Source: a virus (lineage: Duplodnaviria > Caudoviricetes). Taken from it: a stretch of DNA of 30,541 nucleotides. Of the stretch, positions 3,005 to 16,101 are shown piece by piece (the first letter of the stretch is position 1; every line of letters begins with the position of its first letter). The stretch lies in IMG/VR virus record IMGVR_UViG_3300031857_000937, positions 1-30,541 of that record. One strand, given 5' to 3'. The notes under the pieces are model-generated. The model did not search any database, was not told where the DNA came from, and worked only from the letters and a program-made list of their open reading frames with translations. A program made the position numbers and the translations under genes.

Positions 3005-3032
3005 TTGACGAACCTAATACATCAGGTACAAT
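3005..3032 (+). promoter_or_regulatory. Sigma70-type promoter driving the repeat array and downstream genes
   Basis: TTGACG (3005-3010)-N16-TACAAT (3027-3032), about 30 nt before the first array unit. Confidence 0.7.
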
Positions 3033-3055
3033 CAAGTCCAACCTACCTGATGTAT
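3017..3055. promoter_or_regulatory. Perfect 12-bp inverted repeat (operator candidate)
   Basis: ATACATCAGGTA 3017-3028 / TACCTGATGTAT 3044-3055 with a 15-nt spacer, overlapping the -10 box and the predicted start site. Confidence 0.55.
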
Positions 3056-3061
3056 CTGCGG

Positions 3062-3720
3062 GGCCGGATTAGGCTAGGTCGGGCTTGGTAGTCAACGGCA
3101 TGGGCTGTTTACAGCGTCATGGCTTTTCAATGAAAGGTCATTTCGGTGGCAACACCAATCGGACGGCACGGTCGGGAAAGGCTCGGCACGGCGAGGAGAG
3201 GCGGGGACTGGTATGGGCTGTTAACAGCGGGAAGCATTTTTTACAGAGTGCTTTTCGGTGGCAACACCAAAGTGGCGTGGTTGTGGCTCGGAGCAGTGCG
3301 GTCAGGCTCGGTCGGCAAAGGCACGGCGAGGGCTGTTAACAGCGGGATCACTTTTCCATGAGAGGTGATTTCGGTGGCAACACCAAAATGGAAGGGCTGG
3401 CAGCGGCACGGCTAGGAGGGGTGTGGAAGGCTGGGGCATGGGCTGTTAACAGTGGTTAGTCACTTGCAAAGGTGGCTACCCGGTGGCAACACCATTTGGA
3501 CTGGCCTGCCACGGTGCGGCGGGGCGGGGTCGGGCATGGAAATTCTGGGTAAAACAAGGGCTGTTAACAGCGTTATGAGTCTTCATTGAGGGTTCATCTC
3601 GGTGGCAACACCAAGTGGCTTGGACACGCCGGGAATGGCTAGGAGGGGCGTGGATTGGCAGGGGCTAATGTAGCGTCATGACACTTCAATGAGGTGTCAT
3701 TTCGATGCAAAGCGTGCATC
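3062..3720 (+). ncRNA. Tandem array of six putative guide RNAs: GGH-NN pentamer tract + three hairpins (VIPR-like)
   Basis: Units at 3062-3156, 3165-3268, 3274-3384, 3390-3493, 3498-3612, 3617-3720. Each has 8-12 pentamers (50 of 60 start with GG; third base never G), then GGGCTGTTAACAGC, a variable covarying stem-loop and GGTG-GCAA-CACC. The last unit has divergent versions that still pair. Confidence 0.85.
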
Positions 3721-3740: not shown

Positions 3741-4310
3741 ATGAAAACAATCGCAGTTCAATTAACAGGCAAGGCTCCTTTTCTCATGCACTCGGACCGC
3801 TTTGCTAACCCGCTTGACCCACTTGCAAAGGCCCACAAAGAGCTGACCAGCAAGCGCAAGAAAACAGACGACGACCACACTGCCATCGCGCGCAGTGAGT
3901 TCATCGGCGGCTGCTACTGGCGCAAGGACGTTGGCTTCTTCTTGCCAGCACAGAACCTCGATGCGTGCCTGATCGCCGCAGCCAAGTTGCAAAAGCTCGG
4001 AGTTAAGTTCAAGCAGGGCGTGCAGGTATTGGAAGATGAGCTTACGTTTACGGGGTACGACAAGAAAACTCCCGAGCAACTATGGGAAGACCCAGAGCAC
4101 ATTGACTGCCGTGGTGTCAAGGTTGGCATGGCAAAGATCATGCGCTACCGCCCCATCCTTCGCAAGTGGTCTCTGAATGCAACCATCGTTGTCAACGAAG
4201 AAGTGGTCAACCTCAACGAAGTAAAGAAGGCTGTGCAAGATGCTGGAGCCCTGATTGGTTTGGGCGACTACCGCCCACGCTTTGGCCGTTTCAATGTGGA
4301 GTTCATTTGA
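3741..4310 (+). CDS. RAMP/Cas7-like RNA-binding protein (189 aa), putative effector of the upstream array (Vipr-like)
   Basis: AAGGAA Shine-Dalgarno then ATG 3741. N-terminal strand I.V.LTG.APFLMH, central LPAQNL.ACL..AAK helix and C-terminal glycine-rich loop GALIGLGDYRPRFGRFNV follow the RAMP (RRM-fold) pattern. Lies immediately downstream of the array. Confidence 0.75.
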   Translation: MKTIAVQLTGKAPFLMHSDRFANPLDPLAKAHKELTSKRKKTDDDHTAIARSEFIGGCYWRKDVGFFLPAQNLDACLIAAAKLQKLGVKFKQGVQVLEDELTFTGYDKKTPEQLWEDPEHIDCRGVKVGMAKIMRYRPILRKWSLNATIVVNEEVVNLNEVKKAVQDAGALIGLGDYRPRFGRFNVEFI

Positions 4311-4789
4311 TGCAAGAAATGACACTGTTCCCGGCTTGGAAACAGGCCGTCAAGATTCTGATTGATGAGGGCCTAACCTATGGCAGCACCATCAGCAGAA
4401 AGCGCATCTCTGAGCTTTGCAATGTGCGGCCACCAGAGAGCATTGAGGATGTGCGCCGACATGACCTCGAGCTCCTGCAATGCACATCAGAGATCAAAGA
4501 CATCCTGTTGACTGCCCACTGCATGCTCTTGGCGTCTGACAACAAGGGCTCTTACGTAGTCATTGAGCCAGAGTCGCAGACCCAGTACGCAGTGAACACC
4601 GGCATCAAAGCAATCGGTCGTGAGATGAAGAAGATGGCCATGTCCGTCAGCTTTACAAAGGCAGAAATGCTAACCGATGCCGGCAGGGCAAAGAACGCAG
4701 ATGCTCAGGCAAAGATTTCAATGCTCGCGGGAATGATGAACGTGAAAAACAAAGATCTTCAAAACGCACTAGGAGGAAAAAATGACTGA
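4310..4789 (+). CDS. Accessory protein coupled to the RAMP-like gene (159 aa, MQEMTLFPAWK...), possible winged-helix plus helical tail
   Basis: TGATG stop/start overlap at 4308-4312. A helix-helix-helix then beta-hairpin pattern (MLLASDNKGSYVVI) suggests a wHTH fold; the fold is inference. Confidence 0.7.
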   Translation: MQEMTLFPAWKQAVKILIDEGLTYGSTISRKRISELCNVRPPESIEDVRRHDLELLQCTSEIKDILLTAHCMLLASDNKGSYVVIEPESQTQYAVNTGIKAIGREMKKMAMSVSFTKAEMLTDAGRAKNADAQAKISMLAGMMNVKNKDLQNALGGKND

Positions 4790-9402: not shown

Positions 9403-12400
9403 TTACATCTGAGCCTGCTTCCGCAATTCGGGTAGATTGACCGACTTCAGCATCTCTTTTTCCACTTCGCGCAGCTCTTTGATTGCGTCCTTCTTTTCGG
9501 ATGCGGAGTACAAATCTTCAGGCGCATTGGTGATTTGGCTGACGGCCCTGCGAATCTTTGATAGCTGCTCGCCAATCTTCTCCGTGCCTTTGGCTAGACC
9601 CAATCGGGCAATATTCTTTTCGTCGGACAGGAACTTCTCAAGCTCTTGCGGGCTCCTCAATTTGATGTCGTTATAGGTGCTCTTGGTCTTCTCCACCTCA
9701 TCTCGCAAGGCGTAGAAGTCCGTCTTGAGCGCGTTCTCGCTGGCCTTGGTGACAAAGCCGCTTGTGCCCGGGAGGGATGACAGCGCATCACGGAACGACA
9801 GCTCAGGGCGGGGAACATCAGGATCATTGTTGATCATGAAGTTGGTCGTGTACAAAAACAAACCACCAGCCGATCCAAACATGCCGCGAATCATGTGATC
9901 AGCCGCAATTGGCGACACGCCAAACTGGCCCAGCATCTTCGAGAACTCCGAGGTGTTGTCATTGAACTGGCGCTCAGCTTCTTTCTTCTTCTCAAACTGC
10001 CCAATCAGTGGACGGCCTTGGAAGAAGTCGTAATTGATCGCCACCTCAAGAGCTGGCTTCACGGCTTGAGGAATCGGCTGTGGGCTCAGCACTGCGTTGG
10101 CAATGCCGTCGGCAACTGACTTCCTGAACTTGGCGCCATCGGAAAATCCGGTGTCGGTGATCAGGTGGTACAAGTGCTCGGTCAAAACCTTGGGCATCAA
10201 GAACAAGTCTGGACGCAAAGGAATGCGGAAACCACCGGTGCCGGGGACGTTCAAGGTGCGGTCACGAACAGCAGTGGGTGTCTTCTCGTACTCATCATCT
10301 CCGCCATTCATCATGGTGTAGAAGAGCGACAAGGCCATGACCGCACCAGAGGTGGTGGCCAGAGTCATCAGCGCCTCTTTGCGTTGCTGCGGCGAGATGC
10401 CGACCCCGGTCAGCACCTTGTACGCCGTGCGCTGCACCGACATGTAGGCATAGAAGAACGGCACAGTCTGGCCAGCCAAGTTCACCAGCTTGCTCGTGCC
10501 ACGGCGACGGAAGTTGATGATGTCAAATGCCTTCTCAATGGCCTCGCCCTTGGACAATCCCTGCTGCATGGATGCTTCGTACACGGCCTGACGGATAGCG
10601 TTATCAGCGGCCATAGCAACATGGCTCAGGAACTCAATTCCCTTGCCAGCCACCCCCTTTGACCCCCTCAAGCCTGCCGCAATCTGGATGTCGTTACGAG
10701 CGATGGTGGCGTTGAAGTCACGCACACCGGTCGCACCATACGACTCAAGCAGCTTGTGGGTTGCACTGGTCTTGGTCAGAGTCTTGAGAAACTCCTTCAC
10801 CGCCAGCACTGGAATTCTCAAGGCGTAGCGCGTCTTCAAGCCGGAGGTAAACATTGCCGAGTAGGCGTCCTGCGGGACCTGTGCCAACGAGAACAGGGGG
10901 TACAAGACCACAGACTGACGCAGAACGTTTGAGAACCAAGTGAAGAACTTCAGGCTTGGAATGGTCACGTTGCTGATGGCAGAGAAGGCATCCACGTACA
11001 GCGGGTCGGCCATGCTGTAGATTTCTTGGACGCCATCACGGAACACGCGAATGGTGTTCTTCTTGGGGTCCATCTTCTCGACCTTCTCAGCCATCTTCCG
11101 ATCACCCACTTGAAGCTCAGTACCAAGGTCAACCATCTGAAGCGCCTTGTGGTTGCGTACAGAGCGGTTGATGGCGTACTGAGTCCAGCGCACCATGTTG
11201 TCAAACACGTCGTTCACGGCTGCGTTGGAGCCCTTCAGGCGGAACTCTGCTGCCTTGACCTGCATGCCCTTGATGAACTCTTGCGGGCCACCGCCTTCGT
11301 CAAGCTGCTCTTCACGGTAGAACGGCACGTAAGCTGCGTTGTCCAGCATGCTCTCGGCATACTCTCGGCTCCACAAGTTGCCGTCAATCATGGCCTTCAC
11401 AGCGTTGGCACGGATACCCTGCCAGATGTCGCTGATGTTTTCCAGCTCGGGCATGTTCTTGGCCAAGCTCATGCCGGGCTCAATCATTGCAATCTGCTCA
11501 GGGGTAATCAGGACGCTGGCCTTTTCAAGCTTTGCAATGTCAGCCCTGATATCGTTCTTTGCACGCTCGGAAGTGCGAAGCTTCTCAAAGTCGCCGTCCT
11601 TCTTGTACTGCTTGATGTTGGCGTTCTCTTCTTCCAGCTCAGCTTTCAGTCGGTCAATCTCTGCCTCTCGCGTGCGCTGCTTTTTCAACAGGTCCTTGAA
11701 CCGCTTGGCCACGAAGTAGGTGTGCGAAATCTGCTCGGCCTGCTCTTTGTTTAGGCCATACTTTTCGGCAGTCTTCTCAATCTCTTTGGCAAGAGTGATG
11801 AAGTTGTCGTCGCGCTTGATGGAGACCCACTTCTTGGTCTCTGGATCGAACGCAATGCCGCCATCAACAATGAAGCGCGTAGCCAAGGCGTCAGCATGCA
11901 CGGCCTGAGACTGACTGGCCTCAAGCAGCATACCCAACACCTCTGGGTTGTCGGCAAAGTCCTTCTGCAAGTTCCTGCGGATGTCGTTGTTGAACGCCGC
12001 ATCGCCGGAGAAGGCTGCAACTTCCATCTTGTCCAAGAACTTCTTGACGGCACTCTTTGCCGAGTCCTTCGTCATTGCTGGGTTCTCGCCAGTGGCCTTC
12101 AGGATGTCCTTGATCTTCTGGATGCGCCCCGGGTCAGGCGGTTGAAGCTGCATGCCTGTTGCATCAAGGATGTTGAGGTTTTCTTGACCAGCCTCCGTCG
12201 GAGTCGGCTTTCCTTGGCGCTCTTCGGAGACTACAACCTCAACGTCTGGCGTACCGTAGACATCCTTTAATGCTTCTCGAACCTTGTTAGCAGTCTTGTT
12301 GGCATCCTTGGAGAACACGATGTCATTTGGATTTACATACTCCGCACGCTGCGTAAATCTTTCGCCGTTTTTGTCATAGCCATGAAAGGTGGTTTGCGTT

Positions 12401-15400
12401 TTTGGATCGGTAAATCCAGACAAGCGCGAGCCATCTTTCAGAGTTACTGGGTTCTTAAATCGGTTTGCGTAGCCTTGCTTGCGGTCTAACTCAGACTGCT
12501 CTTTGAAAAAAGAGTCAAGGAAAAACAGAGGTTTTTCTTTTTCTTCCTCGTCAACCTTTGCTTCGCCAGCGCCCTCGGGCGAGACGATGATTCTTCCACC
12601 CTTGATCTTGACGCCCTTCAAAGGAACCTTAGAGGGCTTCATGTCAAGCTCTACGTCCGAAGGCGACATGCCCATGATTGTTTCGGAAGTTCTAACCAGA
12701 TTGTCAAGTGCGCTCTCATAGTCTTTGGAAAGGCCAAGCACCTGACGGACGATTTCAATCAGCTTTGAAAACCCGGTCTTGTCTGCAATCTTGATGTCAG
12801 CAAGAAACTTCTGGAACTCTGAGTCGGTCAAACCCCAAGCCATAAGCTCAGCCGGGTTTTTCATAATGTTTGCGCCGCGATCAATCCTTGTAATCGCGTA
12901 GTTGCTCTTACCGGCAGCCCTGTCCTTTTTAATCCTGTCGTCAACTTTTTTGTACAGAACCTTGAGGTCGTTTATGGCTTTTGAGTTTGGCGCTAAGTAG
13001 ATTTGCGCAGATGTTGCTGCATGAATAAGCTCATGCAAGATTGTCAGATACCTTGTTCCCGTCTGACCGTCCGCCTTACCATCAACAAGTCCATTCAGCC
13101 TGATTTTTACAAGCGTGCCTTTGCCTTCGGCCCAGAAACTTTGGGCCATCCCTCTTGTTCCGCTTTTCCACCTTGCGCCGCCATTGAGAACCTTCACCTT
13201 TTCTGGAAAGATTTTTCTCTTTGCAAACTCGTTGATGCGCTCAGTTACTTTTTGAGCAATGGCCCTTGCCGCCTCGTTTGGTGCGTTGTCAACAGTCCAC
13301 TGCGCCATCTGAGGGATGGTCATACCGTTAACTTCTTTGGCAATCTCCTCCATGGGCTTGTTAATAGTGAACTCTGGCTTGTCCGTCTTGTCGTAGGTCG
13401 GCTCTGTTGGCTCTGGCGCCTTGGGCTCCACTGGTTTTGCGGCCTTGGGCTTTGCAGGTGCGGCAGGAGCAACGGCGGGCGCAGCAGCCTGCGGCTCAGC
13501 CGGAGCGGCGACTGGCGCTGCGGGCGGAGTAAACATGTCAGGCTCAGCTTCTGGCTCCAGTACCAAAGCCTTGTACAGGTCATCCTTTGGCATCTTCGGA
13601 ACATTGCCAAACATGTCTGTGTCGGAGGCGTTTGCCTGCTCGGCAGCAGTTGTCGCCAGACGATCCAGCGCTTCAGCCATACGCTTTGATGAACGGCTGT
13701 TATCCGCAAACATCTCGAGCACTTTGAGCGCATACGGGTCTGCGCCCAGCATTCCCTGCTGTACGTAATCCTTGAGCTTCTGACCTGACCTACGTGCATT
13801 GACGGCCATCTCTGCCGCATCAAGCACCGAGGCCCGCACGTCGTAGTCGCCAGCGCCATCAAGAGCCGCCATCTTTGGAGCGGCCTTGGCCAGCGCATTG
13901 AGCACAGCCTTCGCTTCTGGGTCGGCAGCTTGCGCGTACAGCTCAATCAGAGTGTCGCTGCCATATGCCTTGTAGAAGATTGCGTTGTTCAGGCGGTCAA
14001 TCGCCTTGGTGTTGGGCATGCCCTTGGCGTCGATCAACTCACCCTGCTCATCCTTCGGCATGGAGCGAACGAACTGGATCAGCGTGTTGGTGTTGGGGCT
14101 GCCGTCGTCATTGAAGGTCAGGCCGCCCAAGTCAACCCGGCTGATATCGTTCTTTGCGGACTCGACAGGACTCAGGCGCAGCGTGCCACTAATGTTGCTG
14201 ATATCCGCAATGTTTGAAGTTACCTTCGACTTTGGCATCACGCGCACAAGCACTGGATTTTGGAAGCCGCTGATGACGCCGGCATCAATGCCGTGCTCAG
14301 TGTCTTCAATCATCTCGCGCTTGTAGTTGTCAGCAGTTCCTTGGCTGTAGGCCGCACGCAAACCAGCCACCCGGCCATTACCGGCAATGGGGCGAATCGC
14401 GGATACGGACAAGTCGCCGTACTCGGGGTTCTTTGTACCATCAGAAGTGTTTGATGGCGTGATGTCGTTGCCCTCTACAACAGCGTAGCGGACAGGGATT
14501 CGAGTGCCATCAGATGCGGTGGCGTATGCAACCTTGCCGAACTGGGTATCGCTGATTGGCGTGTCGGAAATAACAACCGGGGCACCAGAGCCAAAGTCAC
14601 GGTTAACACTCAGGCGAGAGTAGTCTGGGTTAGCTGCAATGCTTTGCATTTGACCAACGGACGCAGGCGCAGAGCGGTCACGGTTCTGGAAGAACGAACC
14701 AGCTTCTGGCGGCAGGTTTTCCGTGTAGTCATTGGACCACTCCGAAGCCTTTGGGGCCTGTGCGGCGGGGGCAAGAGGCTCTACCGGAGCAACTGGCTCT
14801 GCCGGAGCGGCGCTTACCAGTGGCTCCTCTGGTGTGGGGGTTGGCTCAACCACAGGGGCCGCTGGCGGTGCTGGCGGCTCTGGCGTAACAATGGGCCTTG
14901 CGACTGGCCGTGGCGTAATCGGAGCGACGGGCGCGGGCGGCGCTTCGGCGGCAGGCTTTTTGAGGGCGTCAGTAGCCGTTGCATAAGCGGCAGCAGGAAT
15001 CTCAACAGCAGCACCACCAAGGCTACCCAGCATCTCTTGGCCAACATCTTCAAGGTTAACCTTGCCGTATGCGGCGGCCTGACCAGCGGCCTCGGAGATG
15101 CCTCCTCCTGCCACATCAATACCCAAAGATCCAGCACCACGACCAACAGCCGACTGAACCTTCTGGCCAGTGGTACGGGCTTTAAGCAGATCATCTGCGC
15201 GGGCCGCAATCTTTGCTGCGTCAGCCGTGGCACCCATTTCTTTGCGCGCGGCTTCGATGGCTGCACGGCGTGTGCCAGTGGCGAATCGACCAGCACCAAC
15301 CGTCATAAGTGAGTCAATGGAGGCAGTTGTTATGCCCTTTGTGCGAGCCTCGCTGACCGCCTTCTCCATGGCGGGGGTGTCGCGCAACAGTGCGGCTACA

Positions 15401-16101
15401 TTCGCCTCTGTCGGCTCAAGGCCCCGCTCACGAAGTGCGTCGCCAATACGTCCGATGAATTCAGAGCCAACCTCCAGCGGAGCGCCGGCAGCAAACCCGC
15501 CACCAATAGCGCCCACACCAGCACCTATTGCTGCGCCGCCGGGGCCACCAGCAGAGCCAATCAATGCTCCGCCCTTGCCGCCAGCAATCATGCCTGCGAT
15601 CTGAGGAGCCATATTCGCCGCGCTTTGAGCCGCCAAGTACGCGGCACCCTTGGGGTTTGTAACGGCCTGCTTACCAAACTCAAGCAGCATGTCTGCTACT
15701 GGACCAATACTCTCTCTGAATCCTTTGGCCTTCTCAAAAGCAGCAGCCTCATCTTTAAATGCAGTCTGTGCCGCCACCAACTCAGCGGGACGCACGCCAT
15801 CAGGGCGACTTAACTCCTGAGATAAAAGCGCAGCCTTATCCGCGCCAACATTTCCGGTCACTACGGATGGGGCAATCTTGGCAGCGCCAATGGCACGCTC
15901 GCCACCCTCATAGATCAACGATCCGATGTTAGACAGGAAGCCCTTTTCTTCTTTGGCCTCGTCGGTCATCCACTGGTTGTTTACCAAGTAGGCTTTTTGC
16001 CCTTGGTTGTTTGTGGCAGTTTGCCCAACCGGCACCCACTGACCATCGACCAATGCAACTGTCTCGCCTGTCTGTGGGTTTGTCGCGGTTTGGATTGCCA
16101 T
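9403..16101 (-). CDS. Large polyvalent (ejected/internal virion) protein, 2232 aa: DdrB-like ParB domain, zincin HExxH motif, LPD38-like C-terminus
   Basis: QNRDRS...GAPVV...IAGNGRVAGLRAAY (about 14190-14700); TILHELIHAAT (about 13010-13045); NYDFFQGRPLI...SP.AADHMIRG..G near the C-terminus. Last gene of the virion operon. Confidence 0.8.
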   Translation of the reverse strand: MAIQTATNPQTGETVALVDGQWVPVGQTATNNQGQKAYLVNNQWMTDEAKEEKGFLSNIGSLIYEGGERAIGAAKIAPSVVTGNVGADKAALLSQELSRPDGVRPAELVAAQTAFKDEAAAFEKAKGFRESIGPVADMLLEFGKQAVTNPKGAAYLAAQSAANMAPQIAGMIAGGKGGALIGSAGGPGGAAIGAGVGAIGGGFAAGAPLEVGSEFIGRIGDALRERGLEPTEANVAALLRDTPAMEKAVSEARTKGITTASIDSLMTVGAGRFATGTRRAAIEAARKEMGATADAAKIAARADDLLKARTTGQKVQSAVGRGAGSLGIDVAGGGISEAAGQAAAYGKVNLEDVGQEMLGSLGGAAVEIPAAAYATATDALKKPAAEAPPAPVAPITPRPVARPIVTPEPPAPPAAPVVEPTPTPEEPLVSAAPAEPVAPVEPLAPAAQAPKASEWSNDYTENLPPEAGSFFQNRDRSAPASVGQMQSIAANPDYSRLSVNRDFGSGAPVVISDTPISDTQFGKVAYATASDGTRIPVRYAVVEGNDITPSNTSDGTKNPEYGDLSVSAIRPIAGNGRVAGLRAAYSQGTADNYKREMIEDTEHGIDAGVISGFQNPVLVRVMPKSKVTSNIADISNISGTLRLSPVESAKNDISRVDLGGLTFNDDGSPNTNTLIQFVRSMPKDEQGELIDAKGMPNTKAIDRLNNAIFYKAYGSDTLIELYAQAADPEAKAVLNALAKAAPKMAALDGAGDYDVRASVLDAAEMAVNARRSGQKLKDYVQQGMLGADPYALKVLEMFADNSRSSKRMAEALDRLATTAAEQANASDTDMFGNVPKMPKDDLYKALVLEPEAEPDMFTPPAAPVAAPAEPQAAAPAVAPAAPAKPKAAKPVEPKAPEPTEPTYDKTDKPEFTINKPMEEIAKEVNGMTIPQMAQWTVDNAPNEAARAIAQKVTERINEFAKRKIFPEKVKVLNGGARWKSGTRGMAQSFWAEGKGTLVKIRLNGLVDGKADGQTGTRYLTILHELIHAATSAQIYLAPNSKAINDLKVLYKKVDDRIKKDRAAGKSNYAITRIDRGANIMKNPAELMAWGLTDSEFQKFLADIKIADKTGFSKLIEIVRQVLGLSKDYESALDNLVRTSETIMGMSPSDVELDMKPSKVPLKGVKIKGGRIIVSPEGAGEAKVDEEEKEKPLFFLDSFFKEQSELDRKQGYANRFKNPVTLKDGSRLSGFTDPKTQTTFHGYDKNGERFTQRAEYVNPNDIVFSKDANKTANKVREALKDVYGTPDVEVVVSEERQGKPTPTEAGQENLNILDATGMQLQPPDPGRIQKIKDILKATGENPAMTKDSAKSAVKKFLDKMEVAAFSGDAAFNNDIRRNLQKDFADNPEVLGMLLEASQSQAVHADALATRFIVDGGIAFDPETKKWVSIKRDDNFITLAKEIEKTAEKYGLNKEQAEQISHTYFVAKRFKDLLKKQRTREAEIDRLKAELEEENANIKQYKKDGDFEKLRTSERAKNDIRADIAKLEKASVLITPEQIAMIEPGMSLAKNMPELENISDIWQGIRANAVKAMIDGNLWSREYAESMLDNAAYVPFYREEQLDEGGGPQEFIKGMQVKAAEFRLKGSNAAVNDVFDNMVRWTQYAINRSVRNHKALQMVDLGTELQVGDRKMAEKVEKMDPKKNTIRVFRDGVQEIYSMADPLYVDAFSAISNVTIPSLKFFTWFSNVLRQSVVLYPLFSLAQVPQDAYSAMFTSGLKTRYALRIPVLAVKEFLKTLTKTSATHKLLESYGATGVRDFNATIARNDIQIAAGLRGSKGVAGKGIEFLSHVAMAADNAIRQAVYEASMQQGLSKGEAIEKAFDIINFRRRGTSKLVNLAGQTVPFFYAYMSVQRTAYKVLTGVGISPQQRKEALMTLATTSGAVMALSLFYTMMNGGDDEYEKTPTAVRDRTLNVPGTGGFRIPLRPDLFLMPKVLTEHLYHLITDTGFSDGAKFRKSVADGIANAVLSPQPIPQAVKPALEVAINYDFFQGRPLIGQFEKKKEAERQFNDNTSEFSKMLGQFGVSPIAADHMIRGMFGSAGGLFLYTTNFMINNDPDVPRPELSFRDALSSLPGTSGFVTKASENALKTDFYALRDEVEKTKSTYNDIKLRSPQELEKFLSDEKNIARLGLAKGTEKIGEQLSKIRRAVSQITNAPEDLYSASEKKDAIKELREVEKEMLKSVNLPELRKQAQM

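Follow-up and report, generated by a model that had tools for sequence, protein, structure and literature searches.

The stretch of DNA analysed here, the window, is a 30.5-kb phage contig (30,541 nucleotides) in which structural, lysis and recombination genes are present. Upstream of a vipr gene (3741..4310, plus strand), encoding a RAMP-fold protein of 189 aa, and of a vap1-like accessory gene (4310..4789, plus strand; 159 aa, phrog_5926), it carries an array of six head-to-tail vrRNA units, U1 to U6, each made of a GGY-NN tract, with GG every five bases, and of a 3' tail of about 53 nt.

The anatomy of this array, all of it on the plus strand, is established unit by unit. The guide tract of U1 (3059..3103, 9 YNNGG frames) is followed by a tail at 3104..3156, within which hairpins 1, 2 and 3 (H1, H2 and H3) occupy 3104-3115, 3116-3144 and 3145-3156. 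U2 has a tract of 12 frames (3157..3216) and a tail at 3217..3268 (H1 3217-3228, H2 3229-3256, H3 3257-3268), and the tract of U3 (3269..3331), with one 6-nt unit near its 5' end, leads into the tail at 3332..3384 (H1 3332-3343, H2 3344-3372, H3 3373-3384). The 11 frames of U4 (3385..3441) precede the tail at 3442..3493, where H1 (3442-3453) has a G-U pair at its base and is followed by H2 (3454-3481) and H3 (3482-3493). The tract of U5 (3494..3559) has 13 frames, and its tail lies at 3560..3612 (H1 3560-3571, H2 3572-3600, H3 3601-3612). The last unit, U6, combines 10 frames (3613..3663) with a tail at 3664..3720 (H1 3664-3674, H2 3675-3703) that ends in a longer H3 (3704-3720). The 9-13 frames per unit, with variable NN, fall within the 9-16 repeats that characterize VIPR guides, and a scan of both strands of the 30.5 kb for in-phase GG (at least 6 of 10) gives 49 scanning windows, 49/49 of them inside the array.

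A sigma70-like promoter at 3005..3032 (plus strand), agreeing with the consensus at 10 of 12 positions, is the sole plus-strand match between 2600 and 4400; the scan returned 2 sites against 1.2 expected, which is weak taken alone, and the -10 box of the array promoter is shared by 27 different upstream segments from relatives. A single predicted transcript through the array, vipr and vap1 is likely to be driven from it. An 11-bp inverted repeat (3019-3054), partly kept in relatives, straddles the -10 box and the likely start site and is a possible operator. Further upstream, on the minus strand, 2450-2633 forms a structured non-coding element in which a 21-nt inverted repeat closes a fold of about 150 nt (z -4.3); it has a T-arm-like 3' end, is adjoined by a terminator-like hairpin (2609-2633), matches nothing in ARAGORN or Rfam, and in non-identical relatives has only its hairpin side kept. 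Two tRNAs are found on the minus strand upstream of the array of one relative (L016). Elsewhere, the minus strand of the window encodes at 9403-16101 a large polyvalent protein of 2232 aa with LPD38 and ddrB-ParB domains.

Relatives were taken from 137 vipr loci in three collections and from 4 annotated phage regions. Their arrays span 1 to 10 units (L106:413-1480; L094, L105, L115, L127, L136, L139, L050), and in some of this set units lie downstream of the genes or flank them on either side. Among close relatives, whole units are gained, lost and reordered (L001 compared with the window, L003, L008 and L012), and an identical guide is found with different tails within the same group, suggesting recombination within the tail or the tract.

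Vipr, its accessory gene and known systems

The homology of the vipr product is established by a phmmer alignment to SUSP1 Vipr (PDB 36pp_D, E 7.8e-46). Its structural model (pLDDT 90) matches Csm, Cmr and type VII CRISPR subunits in Foldseek, residues H17, K33, R137, D176 and R178 are invariant in 20 aligned relatives, and the SUSP1 residues in contact with RNA or DNA are kept. The family of the accessory gene, phrog_5926, also includes the downstream neighbour of vipr in phages wV8, LESphi2 and Medea1; the vap1-like protein is 21% identical to that of wV8 (E 3e-6), and the ESM Atlas returned only unnamed clusters for it. The locus thus holds the minimal phage set, vipr plus vap, with phage structural and lysis genes in the same window and a shared vap family, and its layout is that of a type II-like VIPR system (10.64898/2026.04.26.720920), VIPR being a relative of CRISPR that was described only recently.

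According to the available parts of the reports on phage SUSP1, this type II VIPR phage carries vipr and vap1, one Vipr binds per repeat, every third base is skipped, and binding represses transcription (10.64898/2026.04.26.720920; 10.64898/2026.04.26.720927; PDB 36pp). The window resembles SUSP1 in its phage-borne vipr and vap1-family gene, in YNNGG tracts that run into a structured 3' tail, in the RNA-contact residues, and in 1-nt-skip, wobble-aligned targets on both strands. The arrangement differs, since SUSP1 has one vrRNA upstream and three downstream whereas the window has six head-to-tail units upstream. So does the tail: that of the SUSP1 clade is a pseudoknot of about 40 nt, whereas that of the window, about 53 nt long, is built differently: its hairpin 2 is long and variable, hairpin 3 is optional, and the 3' strand of hairpin 1 has a second strand to pair with. 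A type II VIPR system has also been described in a Pseudomonas fulva prophage, with three vrRNAs beside vipr and vap1 (10.64898/2026.04.26.720920; 10.64898/2026.04.26.720927); its complex, in the text available, has no marker like the SUSP1 pseudoknot (10.64898/2026.04.26.720927). Its reported targets are mainly lysis-lysogeny regulators. Residue numbers placed none of the checked loci in the P. fulva clade. The units of the window adjoin end to start, at predicted boundaries, in the manner of the staggered vrRNA arrays in which, by a figure legend, one vrRNA ends where the next begins (Fig. S18 legend, 10.64898/2026.04.26.720920).

A CRISPR array was considered and rejected, as the locus shows neither identical repeats nor contiguous spacers nor a cas operon. 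In class 1 CRISPR systems a hairpin, the crRNA 3' handle, caps the RAMP filament on a guide that is cut from an array, with processing by Cas6. The window array differs in having no contiguous spacer, no identical repeats and no adjacent cas gene, and in a hairpin 2 whose sequence differs from unit to unit.

Fold and conservation of the tail

The initial annotation had described a module of three hairpins under selection on RNA structure. Its sites for hairpin 1 (3104, 3217, 3332, 3442, 3560 and 3664) and for hairpin 3 (3145, 3257, 3373, 3482 and 3601, with a variant at 3704) are correct, and hairpin 2, which it had pairing in every unit, indeed forms 10-13 symmetric pairs in each. Its assignment of the plus strand from G-U pairs also stands, as hairpin 2 has 16 G-U and 0 A-C at 76 symmetric positions. 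Against 200 shuffles, the plus-strand tails of the six units fold at z -3.05 to -5.47, and the minus-strand tails at -0.17 to -1.82 for U1-U5, with U6 folding on the minus strand too (z -4.22). RNAalifold on the six units, a check proposed in that annotation, returns three hairpins, with double changes in 8/19 pairs; covariation of hairpin 3 within the array is near zero, being seen in 1/4 pairs and in U6 only. The suggestion of cleavage in linkers between the hairpins fails, for no such linkers exist: hairpins 1, 2 and 3 abut with 0-nt linkers, and the sole linker joins hairpin 3 to the next tract.

A parser anchored on fixed CU/AG and RRUR cores, and requiring a hairpin at H2, was run on 140 sources (two phage regions being left out). 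It gave 419 tails in 124 of them, 16/140 loci having no tail; 272 tails are distinct, or 271 after dropping a misparse (L126), counting effectively as about 67 at 85% identity. Since the parser required them, the invariance of CU/AG, of RRUR and of a hairpin at H2 is by construction, and only the free positions count as evidence. With a and b denoting the two strands of H1 and c the four bases that follow H2, the outer H1 pair a1-b4 holds in 271/271 tails (G-C 177, A-U 69, G-U 25) and the inner pair a4-b1 in 262/271 (G-C 195, A-U 64, G-U 3). Hairpin 2 shows double changes at 12/12 pairs in 73 diverse aligned tails, where a 2x2 internal loop is common near its base; its covariation score is 0.509, against 0.193 for shuffled and 0.08-0.18 for slid partners, controls that remove relatedness only partly. 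The anchored parse gives the better count for H1, because MAFFT moved its 5' strand in rows with longer loops, a shift that is the likely source of the 9 cells per H1 pair left unpaired in the alignment. The covariation of H1 and H2 is thereby established, the tail is structurally conserved across relatives, and selection on RNA structure, as first claimed, is borne out.

The strand bias bears as well on whether these repeats act as DNA, that is, as protein-binding palindromes or recombination repeats with no RNA structure. Hairpin 1 is self-complementary as DNA in four units, and the gain, loss and shuffling of whole units between close relatives would suit such elements. Yet G-U far exceeds A-C on the plus strand, not only in the window but also in the tails of relatives (548 vs 109 at 3386 positions), the sequence of hairpin 2 changes freely while its pairing is kept, and the tracts decode to real targets, so that a role at the DNA level is barely credible.

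A tail model, R1, whose training set included the window tails and one tail identical to LESphi2, matches exactly the six window tails and tails beside vipr in the Pseudomonas phages LESphi2 and Medea1; among 151 genomes it matches only in the one partly used to build it, and it finds no match in the wV8 locus (L053) or in a Gordonia phage locus. The latter, the vipr locus of Gordonia phage MakoManhole (L052:2884-3236), has GGY-NN tracts and a different tail.

Two types of tail can be told apart, type A, in which H2 starts with G, and type B, in which H2 is closed by C-G. A 4-bp hairpin 3 is possible in 135/148 type-A tails (shuffled mean 51) and in 17/118 type-B tails, below the shuffled mean of 32; hairpin 3 is therefore not the invariant part that the six units had suggested, and its invariance inside the window array likely reflects recent copying of units. 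Stronger forms are found in last units, 55/65 being below -4 kcal/mol vs 93/199 internal units. Both types are mixed within one array in 20/124 loci (L007, L013, L017 and others), and the last unit is of type A in 106/124 loci.

The second pairing of the tail

A point absent from the initial annotation is that strand c, the RRUR that follows H2, stays complementary to strand b, the 3' strand of H1. The pair b1-c4 holds in 271/271 tails, as C-G in 199, U-G in 48 and U-A in 24, and never as C-A. Thus A at c4 accompanies C at b1 in 0/199 tails and U at b1 in 24/72. On a tree built without those columns, which is noisy with its roughly 50 columns, the tails with A at c4 form 15 separate groups (12 parsimony changes), all with U at b1, and in 15/24 tails carrying this A hairpin 3 is impossible. 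Against a clean b:c duplex stand the outer pair b4-c1, which is C-A in 46/271 tails, and b3-c2, which is purine-purine.

With the preceding GG in place, U1-U5 reach their lowest energy as one long stem and not as three hairpins, and the RNAalifold consensus of the 73 tails is a long b:c stem as well. When the GG is blocked, by keeping the five bases ahead of H1 out of any pair in imitation of bound Vipr, three hairpins become the lowest-energy fold for all six units; the long-stem pair probability of U1-U5 is 0.72-0.99 with GG free and 0.12-0.51 with GG blocked, and U6 takes the three-hairpin form in both states. Given the covariation and folding results on both pairings, a:b and b:c are therefore both kept by selection, and the second pairing suggests either that the tail has two folds or that its cap resembles a pseudoknot, different from the one published for SUSP1. 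For the window tails we tentatively favour the former, two alternating partners for the 3' strand of H1, over a pseudoknot-like fold. Such a simple flip fails to explain the type-B tails, whose long stem stays at 0.92 whether GG is blocked or free, because the block does not restore H1 there though H1 covaries.

A single compact fold homologous to the SUSP1 pseudoknot would account for type-B tails keeping their H1 covariation. H1 would be formed, H2 would be inserted in a long loop, RRUR would dock on H1 as triples, and bases of the H1 loop would pair with those just after RRUR. In agreement with it, the 3' bases of the H1 loop make 1.27 pairs with the bases after RRUR, compared with 0.81 in swapped controls (0/2000 swaps, 66 H1 variants), b1-c4 pairs in 9/9 tails in which a4-b1 is broken, and the wV8 tails begin GG|G, with a 4-bp first stem and a loop complementary to their 3' end; pairing of the H1 5' strand plus loop with downstream bases is marginal (33/2000 swaps). 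However, in U1-U5 the bases after RRUR sit in H3 and mismatch the 3' end of the loop, a 4-nt loop leaves little room, R1 has no match to the wV8 tails, and b1-c4 obeys the Watson-Crick/wobble rule as a true duplex would. We place rather limited confidence in this compact fold.

The simplest reading of the tail, three independent stacked hairpins with the RRUR-H1 match left over from duplication or array homogenization, is in keeping with the RNAalifold result on the six units, with the fold obtained under the GG block and with the excess of possible hairpins 3 in type-A tails. Against it stand the depletion of hairpin 3 in type-B tails and the strict dependence of c4 on b1, and we regard it as improbable.

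Guide release and the targets of the guides

The tail is also where the filament may end. In 417/417 tails the last GG is followed by a purine (317 G, 100 A), while G follows an internal GG in 23/2793 cases, and the Y3 pocket of SUSP1 Vipr excludes purines, in the text available (10.64898/2026.04.26.720927). The filament would thus stop at the tail, since the purine after the last GG, which does not fit the Y3 pocket, begins helix H1.

With one promoter-like site and no terminator-like site on the plus strand within the array, each guide would need to be excised from one transcript. The inter-unit linker, measured between H3 and the following GG, has 4 nt in 71/103 type-A junctions and is a plausible place for the cut. 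That the tail makes its own ends, as a self-cleaving ribozyme or an intrinsic terminator, would be in line with the existence of hammerhead-interspersed VIPR arrays (10.64898/2026.04.26.720920) and with head-to-tail units whose ends, behind a single promoter-like site, must arise somehow. Rfam, however, gave nothing at gathering score in the window (sub-threshold matches up to E 10 are unrelated) and only tRNAs in 8 relatives, no hammerhead lies between vrRNAs in the window or in those 8 relatives, ARAGORN returned no match, and the terminator scan of the array was empty on the plus strand, all of which makes this origin of the ends very improbable. As for RNA data, part of the stretch is present in 6/9 listed runs, and the 4 examined are all assembled contigs, without ends, strand or level.

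Guides were decoded with the published 1-nt-skip code, in which NN pairs are read and every third base is skipped. NN strings recur across distant loci while the GGY letters and the tails differ. Wobble-aligned decoding is established for three of the six guides, U2 (sense) and U3 and U4 (antisense). The decoded motif of U2, TRKST[DE]EGL, belongs to large serine recombinases, and the skipped base is the wobble base; the nine-dinucleotide core of this guide is found with a 1-nt skip in about 740 viral stretches and with a 2-nt skip, the sole control skip run in the collections, in 0. The motif is read in 120/120 fetched matches, 67/120 of which agree at 10/12 dinucleotides, and 12/12 of those tested are large serine recombinases. 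For U3, 8/9 dinucleotides agree with S-x-FRDWAA[ED], a stretch of tyrosine integrases. If one dinucleotide is allowed to vary, the guide finds about 190 stretches, vs 5 and 11 for two other 16-base patterns; 109/121 fetched matches lie in frames of at least 150 aa and 15/15 tested are tyrosine integrases. U3 carries one mismatch to most of its matches, and its exact 9-dinucleotide pattern finds one unrelated viral match. U4 decodes to IPLTPYVAHL of a tyrosine integrase, with 21/22 bases in one locus (L384); the exact 10-dinucleotide pattern has 0 viral matches, and a genome search gave matches in 4/351 genomes vs 2 for the control, 2 of the 4 being integrases.

For U5 there is a weak candidate, the first codons of a gene with an HGGxSTG domain, at 9/13 dinucleotides in one genome; the genome search gave 2/301 genomes vs 1 in the control, and the 5 matches of the viral scan were all unrelated and were rejected. 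The candidate gene sits downstream of a 399-aa ORF that, by its sequence, looks like a replication helicase, in what is possibly a satellite-like element (L389:1224-3029). The 11 matches of U1 share no common open frame and were likewise rejected, and no target of U6 was found in the fetched loci. There is no self-targeting in the 30.5-kb contig, which is part of a phage: the best 1-nt-skip matches of the guides are 4/7, 6/12, 5/9, 6/11, 7/13 and 5/10. The 277 distinct guide strings from the guide tracts of L001-L141 fall into clusters. The two largest comprise 41 strings from 37 loci (some low-complexity strings included) and 20 strings from 33 loci, and have cores in common with U2 and U3; several further clusters presumably decode to peptides resembling other recombinase motifs.

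A precedent for such guides is vrRNA4 of SUSP1, which targets the active-site codons of a satellite serine recombinase with the skip on the wobble base (10.64898/2026.10.15.759431, as far as its text is available). The window shares with it a guide at a serine-recombinase motif and the skip on the wobble, but where vrRNA4 addresses one satellite, the motifs read here are common to hundreds of contigs, and two guides are directed to tyrosine integrases, which the available part of that report does not mention as VIPR targets (10.64898/2026.10.15.759431). The predicted role of U2, U3 and U4 is to silence integrase genes carried by other mobile elements. The matches reveal which sequences the guides can read, not which rival element or host is really involved.

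All together, the module is very probably the conserved 3' tail of six guide RNAs beside a phage Vipr, with guides of about 110 nt, a tail that caps the filament and integrase genes as what is silenced. Of the initial annotation, structure under selection and the plus strand remain, whereas an invariant hairpin 3 and cleavage between hairpins do not. If the rules of SUSP1 carry over, with one Vipr per repeat, the third base skipped and transcription repressed by binding, each tract and its tail would be cut out as a guide of about 110 nt, whose tail would end and cap the Vipr filament. The free precursor would be one long stem, and Vipr binding to the last GG may flip the tail into three stacked hairpins, a step we put forward with some hesitation. 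The cut would then fall just after the tail, made by some nuclease, and the guides would silence integrase genes of rival mobile elements. It is a rather unlikely extension of this model that the tail is a protein-triggered switch coupling maturation and the filament end to loading, without Cas6 or a ribozyme, and that the guides form a broad anti-integrase panel covering both recombinase superfamilies.

The system itself has already been published. The VIPR texts compared, in their available parts, mention a structured tail, of which the SUSP1 pseudoknot is the only form analysed (10.64898/2026.04.26.720920; 10.64898/2026.04.26.720927; 10.64898/2026.10.15.759431; 10.64898/2026.10.21.760802); the present tail fold, with its extra conserved pairing, is undescribed in them. 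Among the papers listed by the literature searches, none deals with this fold or with the processing of such arrays, although Fig. S8, with the P. fulva logos, may show tail sequence. The parts compared likewise leave unexplained how single guides are released from an array and what ends the filament, and the 271 natural tail variants, with their specific pair predictions, make both questions directly testable. This class of tail offers a second scaffold for programmable VIPR tools, and, through the guides decoded here, recombinase targeting reaches beyond one satellite to motifs conserved in serine and tyrosine integrases.
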